Notes: generated from the sequence alone by a model not told the origin. A DNA stretch of 64,000 nt from an uncultured Verrucomicrobiae bacterium (GCA_963731265.1 CAVSUE010000001.1:832001-896000), one strand, 5' to 3'; counted from the stretch's first letter, positions 13,868 to 17,708 are shown. Numbers and translations: made by a program.

Positions 13868-14566
13868 ATGCCGCTATCGCCGCAAAAATTCCGAGAGATT
13901 GTTTTCCAGCTGCTGTACAGCGCAGACTTTGGCGGCTGTGCAGAAGTAGCCGAGATGCTTATGGCCCAGCTGGCTGTGACAAAAAAAGTCCTGCGCGAGG
14001 CGGCTGAAGCTAAGGATAAAATTGTGGAGAAACTGCCGCACATCGACGAGCTTGTGAACAGCCATTCGGAAGAGTATGGTTTCGAAAGAATCCCCCGCGT
14101 CGAGCGGAATGTGATCCGTTTAGGGGCCTACGAGCTTCTTTTTTCAACGGCCGTGCCGCCAAAAGTGGCGATTGCGGAAGCAATTCGCCTGACACGGAAA
14201 TTCGCAACTCCAGAGGCTGCGTCGTTTGTGAACGCGATATTAGACGCCATCTATAAGAAGATAAACCGCGCGCAGGAGAGTTTCGTGGATTTGGACTCTG
14301 CGAGGCAAAGCAAAAACGAGGCTCCATCCATCCAGGGGATGGATTCAGGTCAACTCGGAACCGAAGTTTCGGATGACGGGGACGACCCTTCCCGAATAGG
14401 GATGCAACCATCAAAGGATGGTTGCAGGTCACTGCGGAGTTCAAACCCCGAAGTGATCGGAACCGAGGAGGATCAATTTTGCAAAACCACAGCCAGTCCA
14501 AATTCACAAAACATGACGGAGTGCGGTTCGTCTCATGAGTCAACCATTTCGGCCCAGCCAGTTTGA
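13868..14566 (+). CDS. nusB: transcription antitermination factor NusB with ~90-aa C-terminal insertion from a palindromic element
   Basis: REIVFQLLY, IRLGAYEL, PPKVAIAEAIRL.RKF, FVNAILD; the extension coincides with repeat 14264-14528. Confidence 0.9.
   Translation: MPLSPQKFREIVFQLLYSADFGGCAEVAEMLMAQLAVTKKVLREAAEAKDKIVEKLPHIDELVNSHSEEYGFERIPRVERNVIRLGAYELLFSTAVPPKVAIAEAIRLTRKFATPEAASFVNAILDAIYKKINRAQESFVDLDSARQSKNEAPSIQGMDSGQLGTEVSDDGDDPSRIGMQPSKDGCRSLRSSNPEVIGTEEDQFCKTTASPNSQNMTECGSSHESTISAQPV
14264..14528. repeat. palindromic MITE/RPE-like element, copy 1 (inside the nusB ORF)
   Basis: TIRs AACCGC...GATTTGGACT / AGTCCAAATT...GCGGTT; internal TGCAACCAT-ATGGTTGCA hairpin; homologous to 16226-16522. 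Confidence 0.88.
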
Positions 14567-15428
14567 AGTCGATAAGCCCTTAAGCCAATTATCCACGTTT
14601 GGGATCGGCGGGCCGGCGCGCTTTTTTACTGAAGTGCAAAAAACCGAAGATCTGCAAGCCGTTTTAAAATATTGCCATGCGCAAAACCTCCCTTTTTTAA
14701 TCGTCGGCAAAGGTTCCAATTGCTTATTCGACGACCGGGGTTTCGATGGTGTTGTGGTCCTCAACAAGATCGTCTTTTGCCAATGGGAGGGGCCGATCGT
14801 CCATGTGGGTGCGGGTTATTCTTTTTCACTTTTGGGGACACAAACAGCCCGCAAAGGGTGGGCGGGCCTCGAATTTGCTTCCGGGATTCCTGGTTCGATT
14901 GGAGGAGCCGTTTACATGAATGCAGGCGCGAGCGGCACGGAAACCTGCGAGGCATTGATCGAAGTTTCTTTTGTCAATGAACAAGGCGATCTTGAAGTTT
15001 TAAAACGGGATCAGACCGCGTTTTCCTACCGCTTTTCGAATTTTCAAAAACGAAGAGGCGCGATCGCCTCGGCGAAGTTCTTGCTCGGCCCATCCGAAGA
15101 GGCTAGAAAAAAGCAGCTCGGGATCGTCGATTATCGCACACGCACGCAGCCCTATTCAGATAAATCGGCCGGCTGCGTTTTTCGCAACCCTGAATCCCAT
15201 TCCGCAGGCGCGCTGATCCAGCAATGCGGCCTCAAAGGAAAACGCATCGGCGGGGCCGAGGTCTCGACGATGCATGCCAACTTTATCGTCAATAAAGACA
15301 ATGCGACTTCCCAAGATGTTTTAGCTCTCGCTGAAGAAGTGAAAAAGACCGTCAAAGAAAAGACGGGAGTCGAGCTTGAAATGGAAGTGCGATACATTCC
15401 AAGAGAAAAAGATGTCCTTTCGTGCTGA
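14535..15428 (+). CDS. murB: UDP-N-acetylenolpyruvoylglucosamine reductase
   Basis: TFGIGGPA, GKGSN, GIPGSIGGAVYMNAGA, SAGCVFRNP, HANFIVN. Confidence 0.96.
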   Translation: MSQPFRPSQFEVDKPLSQLSTFGIGGPARFFTEVQKTEDLQAVLKYCHAQNLPFLIVGKGSNCLFDDRGFDGVVVLNKIVFCQWEGPIVHVGAGYSFSLLGTQTARKGWAGLEFASGIPGSIGGAVYMNAGASGTETCEALIEVSFVNEQGDLEVLKRDQTAFSYRFSNFQKRRGAIASAKFLLGPSEEARKKQLGIVDYRTRTQPYSDKSAGCVFRNPESHSAGALIQQCGLKGKRIGGAEVSTMHANFIVNKDNATSQDVLALAEEVKKTVKEKTGVELEMEVRYIPREKDVLSC

Positions 15429-16224
15429 TTTGCATTGCCACACCACCTTTAGCGACGGCAGTTTGACGCCAGAGCAACTCTTGCGCCATGCCAAAGAAAT
15501 CGGCCTTACCGGCATTTCGATCACCGACCATGATACCGTCGAGGCTTATTCTCAGGCGCGCCCCCTTGCCAAAGAGCTGGGACTTCTTTTGGGCGTAGGC
15601 GCCGAATTTTCCTGCGTGTTTCAAAAAATGAGCGTCCACCTCCTCGCCTATGATTTTGATCTCGATGCCCCTGAGATCGCCACTCTGTGTGGTTTGCATC
15701 GAAGGCGCCGTACACTGCGCAATAAAACGATCCTCGACAAGTTAAGCCGCCTCGGAATGACAATTAGAGAAGAAGAACTCTACGCCCTCGGCAAGGGGAC
15801 TTTAGGACGTCCGCATATCGCGCATCTCATGATTAAAAAAGGGTACGCCTCATCGATCAAGGACGCTTTCAATCGATTCATCGGCGACGGCAAGCCATGC
15901 TACGATCCCGGAGAAGGAGTTTCTGTTCAAGAGACAATCGACATCATTCATCAAGCCAAAGGAAAAGCCTTCGTCGCCCATCCGCACCTTCTGGAACATG
16001 CCCGCAAAATCAAAGAACTACTCAAATACCCGTTTGATGGGATAGAATGCCATTATGCAAAATTTCTTCCCGAGCAGGAGAAACGTTGGATAAATACCGC
16101 AAAAGAAAAAGGCTGGCTCATCAGCGGCGGGTCCGACTTTCACGGCGCTTCGAAAGAGTACATTCAACTCGGATGCTCTTGGGTGGATGAAGAGACATTT
16201 CACAAGATCTTTCAGCACATATGA
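15412..16224 (+). CDS. PHP domain phosphoesterase (TrpH/YciV-like)
   Basis: DLHCHTTFSDG, ITDHD, GRPHIA, AHP, GGSDFHG; start placed at ATG 15412. Confidence 0.9.
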   Translation: MSFRADLHCHTTFSDGSLTPEQLLRHAKEIGLTGISITDHDTVEAYSQARPLAKELGLLLGVGAEFSCVFQKMSVHLLAYDFDLDAPEIATLCGLHRRRRTLRNKTILDKLSRLGMTIREEELYALGKGTLGRPHIAHLMIKKGYASSIKDAFNRFIGDGKPCYDPGEGVSVQETIDIIHQAKGKAFVAHPHLLEHARKIKELLKYPFDGIECHYAKFLPEQEKRWINTAKEKGWLISGGSDFHGASKEYIQLGCSWVDEETFHKIFQHI

Positions 16225-17708
16225 TATACCGCGGGCAGGAAGGTTTTGTGAATTTGGACTCCGCGAGGCAAAGCAAAATCGAAGCGCAGCGGCCGAACGA
16301 GAAAGACCATTCCCGAATAGGGCTGCAACCATTAAAGGATGGTTGCAGGTCTCCTCGGAGTTCAAACTCCGAAGAGACTGGAACAGCTGACGAGGCTGCG
16401 GAGACACGCGAAAGTCCGGTGGACTTTCGCTGTGCAAAGCAGGTGAACGAAGTGAACCGGGCTGATCGATTTTGCAAAGCCGCAGCAAGTCCAAATTTAC
16501 AAAACCTGACGGAGCGCGGTATGGATTTTGAACAGGTCATCGATCGGTTATTCAAAACCACGTCGAGTAGTAAGCCCGGCTTGAGCAACGCGCTCGCTTT
16601 TGACCAGGCCCTTGGTTTTCCGACGGCAGCTTATCCGACCATCCATATCGCCGGCAGCAACGGCAAAGGCTCTGTTGCGACAAAAATTGCCAAGGCCATA
16701 GAACTTTCCGGCTATCGTGTAGGGCTATACACTTCTCCCCATCTCCATTCTTTTTGCGAACGGATAAACGTCAATGGGCAAATGGCAGATGAGGAAGCAG
16801 TGGTGGAGGGGATGCGCCGCATTTTTTCCATCGACGATGAGCTTCAGCTACAGGCAACTTTTTTTGAAATGGCGACGTTTTTTGCTTTCGATTACTTTCG
16901 CATGAGGAAAGTCGATCTCGCCGTCATTGAAACAGGGATAGGGGGCCGTTTCGACGCTACGAACGTCATCACTCCCATTCTCACCGTCATTACTTCCATC
17001 TGCCGCGAACACACCCACATTCTAGGGGAAGACATCGAAAAAATCGCCTCTGAAAAAGCGGGAATCCTTAAAGAAAAAGTTCCCGCCATCCTGGGCCCCA
17101 AAGCACGCTGCCAGGCGATCTACGACCGCGCGAAAGCACTGAATTGTCCTGTCTTGCCCTCGAAAAAGATCAGTCAATTTTATGATGAAGAGAATACCGC
17201 CACCGCCGAGCTTGCCCTCACATCGGTTTCATCTCATTTCTCATTGGATGGGGATGCCGTGAAGCGAGGGGTGTCGATCCGACCTCCTTGCCGTTTTGAA
17301 AGGATAGGTAATGCGATTTTTGACGTGGCCCACAATCCGGAAGCTGTTTTTTATCTGATTCAAGCGCTGCATACATTCTTTCACACATCGCGGTTTCGCT
17401 TTCTCGTCGGATTTTCCAAAGATAAGGAATACGACCAATGCCTCGACTTAATTGCCGCCGTGGCTTCCCATATCCACTTCGTTCAAGCTCCGACGCCCCG
17501 GGCTGCAACCGTGCAGGAATTGATCGCCGTTATAAAAAATGAGGATCCCGCTTTTTGCTCTTCCCATCTCTCTATTCAAGAAGGAGTGGAAGAAGCTTAT
17601 TCCCAAGCTTTGGAAAACGAAGAGATCCTCGTGATTTGCGGGAGTTTTTATATCATGGCAGAGGCCAAAGAGGCTCAGTTGGGGGTGCTTTCTTCTTTTG
17701 CCACCTGA
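16221..17708 (+). CDS. folC: folylpolyglutamate/dihydrofolate synthase; 100-codon N-terminal extension from the repeat, alternative start at 16521
   Basis: HIAGSNGKGS, YTSPHL, ETGIGGRFDATN, EKAGI, DVAHNP, CGSFY. Confidence 0.9.
   Translation: MIYRGQEGFVNLDSARQSKIEAQRPNEKDHSRIGLQPLKDGCRSPRSSNSEETGTADEAAETRESPVDFRCAKQVNEVNRADRFCKAAASPNLQNLTERGMDFEQVIDRLFKTTSSSKPGLSNALAFDQALGFPTAAYPTIHIAGSNGKGSVATKIAKAIELSGYRVGLYTSPHLHSFCERINVNGQMADEEAVVEGMRRIFSIDDELQLQATFFEMATFFAFDYFRMRKVDLAVIETGIGGRFDATNVITPILTVITSICREHTHILGEDIEKIASEKAGILKEKVPAILGPKARCQAIYDRAKALNCPVLPSKKISQFYDEENTATAELALTSVSSHFSLDGDAVKRGVSIRPPCRFERIGNAIFDVAHNPEAVFYLIQALHTFFHTSRFRFLVGFSKDKEYDQCLDLIAAVASHIHFVQAPTPRAATVQELIAVIKNEDPAFCSSHLSIQEGVEEAYSQALENEEILVICGSFYIMAEAKEAQLGVLSSFAT
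16226..16522. repeat. palindromic MITE/RPE-like element, copy 2 (in frame at the folC 5' end)
   Basis: TIRs ATACCGCG..GGTTTTGTGAATTTGGACT / AGTCCAAATTTACAAAACC..CGCGGTAT; shares its internal core with copy 1. Confidence 0.88.

Follow-up and report, generated by a model that had tools for sequence, protein, structure and literature searches.

Introduction

The Correia elements of Neisseria are repeats of about 100-300 nt with terminal inverted repeats and a TA duplication, which occur in many dispersed copies and are co-transcribed with their neighbours. TA-flanked MITEs, or miniature inverted-repeat transposable elements, of this type are mainly intergenic and, to our knowledge, a habit of lying within genes in one frame and one orientation is not a known feature of them. 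Here we describe a palindromic element that occupies nusB and folC in frame. Its host is an environmental, uncultured chlamydia from a lineage resembling the Rhabdochlamydiaceae; both copies lie in a stretch of 64,000 nucleotides (CAVSUE010000001.1:832001-896000), referred to as the window. In-frame residence has been described for the Rickettsia palindromic elements (RPEs). According to the available part of a MITE review, these small palindromic repeats of about 150 bp are inserted in frame in unrelated housekeeping genes, where the encoded peptide fits the fold of the host protein, and they are the one example of high-frequency in-frame insertion, a similar process in other prokaryotes being called conceivable (PMC10969869). 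The same part mentions occasional in-frame fusions with host open reading frames (ORFs) for ERIC, BOX, QMITE1 of Coxiella and the Anabaena MITEs (PMC10969869). For R. bellii, 526 RPEs are reported, 53 of them in genes, in the available part of PMC1458961. No such element was found described for chlamydiae in the literature searched: the words "palindromic" and "MITE" do not occur in PMC9723776 and PMC2878342, two papers on chlamydial genomes, nor does the word "Chlamydia" in the MITE review PMC10969869.

The window is part of one of the two contigs of a 2.34-Mb assembly with 45.8% G+C. The relatives of its NusB all come from metagenome-assembled chlamydiae, several of the records being labelled Rhabdochlamydia or Rhabdochlamydiaceae and some bearing other phylum labels given by their depositors. 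We refer to the genome under study as G000, to its contig as C1 and to the congeners as G001-G005 and G012. The public contig L024 (NusB 96% identical; 94-96% identical to the window over 11000-17054) served for comparison at the two window sites, and G003, the nearest whole genome compared (~93% identical), was the reference for six further sites. Contigs of four public sequencing runs (X1, X2, X3 and X12), ~93% like the window, represent a relative with empty sites. ORF sizes are given from stop to stop, without a gene caller, in all counts, and the relatives counted are not independent samples.

Two in-frame insertions in nusB and folC

We consider it very probable that two stretches of the window are copies of a TA-inserting palindromic MITE, which lie in frame and probably add segments to chlamydial proteins. 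Copy 1 (14264..14528, + strand, 265 nt; nhmmer family match with E 1e-38) lies in nusB (13868..14566, + strand), whose 232 codons include an 89-codon insert and whose Pfam NusB domain spans residues 7-130. The copy is flanked by TA at 14262-14263 on the left and by a decayed TA (CG, 14529-14530) on the right. In L024 this site is empty and reads ...AAGAAGATTTCTAATGAATCAACC..., i.e. KKISNESTVSAQPV-stop, and the protein has 143 residues as compared to 232 in the window. The net gain of 267 nt equals 265 nt plus the TA duplication, or exactly 89 codons, in agreement with the ~90 residues that an earlier reading of the sequence alone had assigned to this insert. The natural last codons and stop of nusB return behind the copy, and the 32-nt overlap of the nusB 3' end with murB (14535..15428, + strand; Pfam FAD_binding_4 and MurB_C) is kept despite the insert. 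An identical overlap in L024 shows it to be natural, as had been supposed; a natural end of nusB at the murB ATGA was rejected by the same comparison. NusB relatives measure 132-154 residues, and in 20 of 20 aligned the insert, which falls into the variable tail behind the conserved domain, is absent. Contigs of X1, X2 and X3 skip 14263-14530, and that of X12 skips 14260-14530.

Copy 2 (16227..16521, + strand, 295 nt; nhmmer E 5e-71) stands directly after the start codon of a long folC frame (16221..17708, + strand) of 495 codons, in which Pfam Mur_ligase_M and Mur_ligase_C are found from residue 143 onward. A PHP-domain gene (15412..16224, + strand; Pfam PHP) ends just upstream with a TGA at 16222-16224 that overlaps the ancestral ATG of folC. 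The copy is preceded by TA at 16225-16226; on the right, TG (16522-16523) takes the place at which the duplication should have left its second TA, and the last base of the element provides the A of an ATG at 16521. From ATG 16221 to ATG 16521 there are exactly 300 nt, stop-free for 100 codons. The folC site is empty in L024, and contigs of X2, X3 and X12 skip 16225-16524. The net gain relative to L024 is 300 nt, not 297, and either the ancestor was one codon longer or 5 nt were duplicated by the event.

Which of the two ATG codons starts folC? In L024 the gene begins at the ATG of an ATGA overlapping the PHP stop (MNFEQLIDR...), and the protein read from 16521 in the window (MDFEQVIDR...) is collinear with it. 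The PHP and folC genes overlap or lie within ~35 nt of each other in all 16 relatives whose junction was examined, and the ATGA overlap is visible in eight of them. These junctions and L024 identify ATG 16221 as the ancestral, translationally coupled start, intact in the window. The sequence-only reading was correct about the 100 codons between the two ATGs and about the coupling, with the correction that 16221 is not a new start; 16521 as the natural start was in turn rejected by comparison with L024. As read from the sequence, a GGAG in the right end of the element (16511..16523, + strand) stands 6 nt before ATG 16521. In the predicted fold this GGAG and the ATG are paired with the left end, and they would therefore become accessible chiefly while the stem is opened by ribosomes arriving from 16221. 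Most likely, coupled ribosomes still start at 16221 and give a FolC with a 100-residue N-terminal extension, while a second start at 16521 behind the GGAG of the element may also give FolC of native length.

In L024 exactly these two stretches are missing. Six other sites of G000 that hold a copy with an open frame are empty in G003, and the alignments indicate that insertion was recent at the two window genes as well as at those six sites, the window copies having been gained since the nearest sequenced relative diverged. A clean TA duplication is seen at lpxK (AAAT[TA]CGCC), pyrB (TTT[TA]GGAG) and pyrH (TTA[TA]AGAG).

The sequence-only reading had further described the two stretches as related copies with long imperfect inverted ends, lying in the same orientation and read in the same frame as related peptides. 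All of this is borne out: the copies comprise 265 nt plus TA in nusB and 295 nt plus TA in folC, both are on the + strand and share one element frame, and the inverted arms of the folC copy (16226-16282 and 16466-16522, 57 nt) are 75% complementary. The minus strand, which it had also called open across both copies, indeed carries ORFs at 14010..14543, 16018..16494 and 16121..16588.

A mosaic family of inverted-repeat elements

With a profile built from the first blastn matches, nhmmer found 15 full copies and ~16 partial or weak matches in G000. The copies range from 171 to 357 nt, and their sole ORFs are the element frames. A blastn search of G000 with one window copy recovered the other in pieces (E 3e-22 to 6e-13); in a pairwise alignment the two correspond at both ends and at a central hairpin, with large indels inside. 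The hairpin common to both, TGCAACCAT / ATGGTTGCA, is located at 14403-14426 in the nusB copy, where the strandless feature TGCAACCATC / GATGGTTGCA (14403..14426) has 10-nt arms that are 100% complementary, and within arms at 16313-16358 in the folC copy. According to the family alignment, the ends are conserved, TAC(C/T)G...C(G/A)GTA, and mostly flanked by TA, and the interior is a mosaic in which two or three hairpin modules occur in some copies and are missing from others. A GGAG is kept in the right ends of copies with an open frame. The DNA identity between copies is independent of the host gene.

The elements are short, lack a transposase gene of their own, carry terminal inverted repeats, show a target-site duplication and occur in many dispersed copies. 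The family is a TA-duplicating, non-autonomous, inverted-repeat MITE with ends of ~57 nt, and because of the long inverted ends and the TA duplication we regard it as a classical MITE. The RNA of each window copy folds as one long stem with side hairpins, at -116.9 kcal/mol (z = -7.4) for copy 1 and -144.7 kcal/mol (z = -10.3) for copy 2, and none of 200 shuffles folds as well as either. With a family of 15 copies and RNA folds far below shuffled controls, the two stretches are not chance sequences. A promoter and terminator scan of 13700-16800 gave counts no higher than shuffled sequence.

Frame, length and orientation in the host genome

Eight of the 15 full copies are stop-free in the frame common to the window copies. 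The seven that have stops in this frame lie between genes or at gene borders. The net insertions of the eight open-frame copies (267, 300, 294, 225, 171, 231, 231 and 219 nt) are all multiples of three, and all eight copies are co-oriented with the gene that contains or follows them. A genome-wide count places six of the eight in conserved genes, read in the shared frame. Two of these lie close to the C-terminus, 11 codons before the stop of nusB (232 residues) and six codons before that of pyrB (383 residues). In folC (495 residues) the insert directly follows the start codon, in priA (839 residues) it stands behind codon 9 with the first Pfam domain beginning right after it, and in the gene of RNase R (rnr; 844 residues) it occupies the N-terminal tail. 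In lpxK (409 residues) it breaks the Pfam domain, at position 297 of the 328 in the profile.

An intergenic location of the two remaining open-frame copies, at C1 50959 and C1 509309, was considered and rejected. The seventh copy (G000:C1:50959-51189) lies 8 codons into pyrH; the frame is kept, and the host frame enters a different element frame with one stop (TGA). Behind this stop, GAGGAGGA followed by ATT/TTG may allow translation to restart, and PyrH would then be slightly altered. The eighth copy, at C1 509309, is found directly upstream of kdpF-kdpA. Replication-strand bias as a cause of the orientation rule was rejected because copies on the + and - strands are interleaved along the same stretch of the contig (nhmmer, G000).

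Two of the copies with stops, G000:C1:1557161-1557454 and 349892-350248, are positioned directly upstream of co-oriented genes, and the frame of the downstream ORF extends exactly 87 nt into the right end of each; the start codon or leader of these two genes may be element-derived. Separately, an unrelated repeat of ~165 nt is present upstream of rnr (G000:C1 ~1234820-1234985; L009:1017-1180). G003 lacks it at this place, and tens of matches to it are found in G002, G003 and G005.

If the inserts were removed before or after translation in the manner of introns or inteins, the mature proteins would be unchanged. We regard this as very improbable, its sole support being the strong RNA structure. 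Removal at the RNA level needs neither a length divisible by three nor an open frame, yet all eight open-frame copies are multiples of three and there is no stop in any in-gene copy that uses the shared frame. A search of window positions 14000-16800 against Rfam (E<=1), intron models included, returned no relevant family. At the protein level, no Pfam intein or Hint domain was reported in the host proteins, and inserts of 57-99 residues are too small for an intein fold.

The family in other genomes and proteins

The DNA profile (nhmmer) gave 94 matches in G001, 43 in G005, 19 in G002, 8 in G003 and 4 in G004; the copy counts for G001 and G005 that follow refer to copies retrieved by one 171-nt query. 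In G005, which consists of a single contig, 11 of 17 near-full copies are in the shared frame within ORFs of 180-1133 residues. The host proteins comprise RecC (residues 484-540), a RecD-like helicase, DnaX (residues 302-358), an ABC ATPase, a glycosyltransferase and a class IV aminotransferase that the insert interrupts within its Pfam domain; a GH3 hydrolase contains one partial copy. Two copies stand just upstream of the real starts of an SDR gene and CoiA, in another frame. None of the 17 lies in an opposite-strand ORF of at least 200 residues, though two of the opposite frames are free of stops, in 11 and 12 copies, respectively. In the DnaX gene of G005 (L153:3541-5151) the first residues of the element peptide (IYRAQEGLGN...) are repeated directly behind the full in-frame copy, which resembles what is left of a second, partial copy.

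G001 holds more than 30 copies of the family. Those with an open frame lie in ORFs of 224, 315, 338, 481, 558 and 772 residues. A subfamily of 16 copies of 170 nt (L178-L192) shows the reverse pattern: two stops interrupt the shared frame in every copy, all six frames are interrupted in 15 of the 16, the length is not divisible by three, and none is ever found within an ORF of more than 72 residues. This recently amplified subfamily is a natural control for the coding-compatible ones. In total, ~26 in-gene copies from G000, G005, G001 and three other loci are in the shared frame, and no full copy has the opposite orientation, though opposite frames are often open; two fragments made of internal modules only and one 71-nt end fragment, which overlap opposite-strand ORFs, were excluded from this count as ambiguous.

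At the protein level the distribution is patchy. A profile of the peptide matches 11 of 61 sampled genomes of the bacterial family and seven of 40 genera, the host genome counted. Among 1.84 billion representative proteins it finds 152 at E<=1e-3 and 77 at E<=1e-10. In the best 150 of these 152, 81 are shorter than 120 residues and are probably miscalled element copies, while 40 have at least 200 residues. Seventeen of these 40 long matches bear unrelated Pfam domains, including those of histidine kinase, DapB, a tRNA-synthetase anticodon domain, chorismate-binding enzymes, PyrI, ThiF, UvrD, LigD primase-polymerase, peptidyl-tRNA hydrolase and others.

LpxK of G012 contains a different palindrome of 165 nt (L116:1972-2136), in frame, with 55 codons and a fold of -109 kcal/mol. 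It occupies the exact LpxK position of the 171-nt copy in G000. The palindrome has no nhmmer match to the family studied here and no blastn match in G000. Therefore, more than one palindromic family resides in frame in this clade, and the LpxK loop is a permissive site.

Could a repeat have been wrongly placed into genes during assembly of a metagenome? The genome is indeed a metagenome assembly, and public sequencing runs each hold at most 13% of the sampled words of the window stretch. On the other hand, the frame is preserved and TA duplicated at the junctions in eight different genes, and the same habit is seen in independently assembled genomes, single-contig ones among them, as well as in many unrelated database proteins. 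We therefore judge an artefact of this kind to be highly unlikely.

Could the inserts be absent from the working proteins? FolC would then be made only from ATG 16521, and the N-terminal copies would act as portable 5' leaders whose open frame is a mere coincidence. The GGAG 6 nt before this ATG and the collinearity of the protein read from there with that of the relative fit such a role, as do the pyrH host frame, which hits a stop in the element ahead of GAGGAGGA and ATT/TTG as a possible restart, and the two G005 copies just upstream of the SDR and CoiA starts. In nusB, pyrB and lpxK, and in recC, dnaX and the aminotransferase gene of G005, the inserts are C-terminal or internal, and the leader role cannot apply because the conserved part downstream is only made by read-through. 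In priA the stretch from the element to the first domain is free of in-frame ATG, GTG and TTG codons. For folC itself, the long stem sequesters the GGAG and the ATG as long as no ribosome translates the left arm, and the ancestral coupled start at 16221 is intact. On this balance leaders without protein inserts are an unlikely explanation, and we prefer in-frame insertion with translation of the inserts.

The inserted peptide

The peptide of the shared frame is hydrophilic, with a grand average of hydropathy (GRAVY) of -1.09 to -1.25 and a net charge of -1 to +3. The opposite-strand frames have GRAVY values of -0.63 to +0.61, ~1.5 to 2.7 times as many hydrophobic residues and a net positive charge. 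In an AlphaFold2 model of NusB, the core up to about residue 140 has a predicted local distance difference test score (pLDDT) above 90, and values from about residue 150 onward are below 60, the last helix extending slightly into the insert. For LpxK, whose model was built from an alignment of eight rows and has a mean pLDDT of 69, the insert (residues 315-376) is below 50 and the strand and helix behind it are at 78-93. The insert peptide is thus predicted to be disordered.

Changes from the consensus in G005, counted as synonymous to non-synonymous, amount to 18:33 in in-gene copies and 13:19 in other copies, with 23% synonymous expected at random. Therefore, the insert looks tolerated rather than useful. 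The occurrence of a conserved peptide in many proteins could suggest that recombination or shared descent has spread an ordinary motif or domain. Such an origin is extremely improbable: the segment has long inverted ends, TA duplications and precisely empty orthologous sites, copies also lie outside genes or contain stops, and the DNA identity does not follow the host gene. The predicted disorder and the lack of excess constraint within genes argue in the same direction, and in the six host proteins of G000 no Pfam family covers the insert.

Proposed mechanism and points against it

We propose that the inserts are made together with the host proteins as disordered surface or terminal appendages, and that their distribution would result from a selective filter. 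A copy within a gene would survive only if the element and its duplication add up to a multiple of three, if the host frame meets the stop-free hydrophilic frame, and if it has entered a terminus or a loop. Loss of a copy that has become fixed in an essential gene would be difficult, as imprecise deletions would do harm. The mobilising enzyme would probably be a transposase of the IS630/Tc1 type acting in trans.

From frame conservation we infer that transcription and translation of the host genes include the inserts, since lengths divisible by three and stop-free internal copies in essential genes such as dnaX would not otherwise be needed. Several observations weigh against this reading. The stable RNA of the copies (-117 and -145 kcal/mol) could impede ribosomes or invite cleavage. 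Because ATG 16521 has a GGAG 6 nt upstream, the long FolC need not be the functional form, and the codon-position test in G005 gave no clear constraint on the peptide. The nusB, folC, priA and rnr junctions fit a TA duplication only with a later change of 1-3 nt. As to the enzyme, the DDE_3 loci of G000, G001 and G002 have no element match in or beside them, save one ordinary copy ~600 nt from one locus; G005 has 17 copies but no DDE_3 match; and by blastn of the ends, G000 holds no two inverted ends farther apart than one copy length.

By Pfam, there are five DDE_3 matches in G000, 16 in G001, six in G002 and none in G005 and G003. A transposase with matching ends, which had been suggested as a partner of the element, was not found in the genomes searched, the search for an autonomous partner having covered few genomes. 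Six loci emerged when 185,579 species genomes were scanned with an exact pattern for such a partner, and all six are ordinary short copies. At 15 places of G001:C1 (e.g. L167) there is an insertion sequence of the IS630 type, ~1.13 kb long, with identical DDE_3 scores and ORFs of 297-364 residues. The bases at its very ends, TATACT, are similar to the TACT-type termini that some copies of the element have; nothing further matches.

A further possibility, which we offer tentatively and as somewhat doubtful, is that the family, beyond being tolerated in genes, has evolved into a transposon compatible with coding sequence, for which genes serve as refuges in a compact genome. The length divisible by three, the one stop-free, hydrophilic and charge-balanced frame and the right end, whose ribosome-binding GGAG could rebuild a start codon, would then be adaptations, with the complete bias in orientation and frame as their signature. 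The intergenic 170-nt subfamily of G001 would represent a lineage that abandoned this strategy.

Comparison with known systems

The chlamydial family resembles the MITEs of the Correia type, related to IS630/Tc1-mariner, in its TA duplication, terminal inverted repeats, size and dispersal. It differs from IS630-derived MITEs in that no element of the IS630 type with matching ends was found in the genomes searched. The palindrome-associated transposable elements (PATE) derived from IS200/IS605 lack a target duplication, have subterminal hairpins in place of long inverted ends and insert strand-specifically beside a short motif. These traits are absent here, the chlamydial copies having long inverted ends and a TA duplication and lying on both strands. 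In comparison to ERIC, BOX, QMITE1 and the Anabaena MITEs, for which the available part of the MITE review gives in-frame fusions as occasional (PMC10969869), in-frame residence is dominant in the open-frame subfamilies described here.

The closest likeness is to the RPEs: in both cases a palindromic repeat of an obligate intracellular host lies in frame in unrelated genes and is read as one conserved peptide. The chlamydial family belongs to a different phylum, Chlamydiota, is longer (171-297 nt) with mosaic internal modules, and has clear long inverted ends and a TA duplication. The view of a chlamydial analogue longer than RPEs, already expressed in the sequence-only reading, has held: the host is chlamydial and the element exceeds the ~150 bp of an RPE. 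Because the host is a chlamydia, we call the family an analogue and not a member of the RPEs, a likeness drawn from descriptions of the latter. The share of copies within genes is much higher, 7 of 15 in G000 and 11 of 17 in G005, as compared to 53 of 526 given for R. bellii in the available part of PMC1458961.

As to annotation, transposon copies in chlamydial genomes from metagenomes will be reported by gene callers as odd extensions and repeated "domains". It can now be tested how proteins tolerate 60-100 inserted residues, whether frames suited to coding evolve in mobile elements, and at what rate new protein segments arise from such inserts. Rickettsia has been regarded as the specialist in selfish DNA that lies in frame in housekeeping genes. 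With a new RPE-like, TA-flanked MITE family in a second phylum, Chlamydiota, a second, unrelated intracellular lineage has this habit, and the chlamydial system adds to the one of Rickettsia clean hallmarks of a transposon, recent insertions that can be dated by empty sites at ~94% identity, and sister subfamilies that are able and unable to live in genes.

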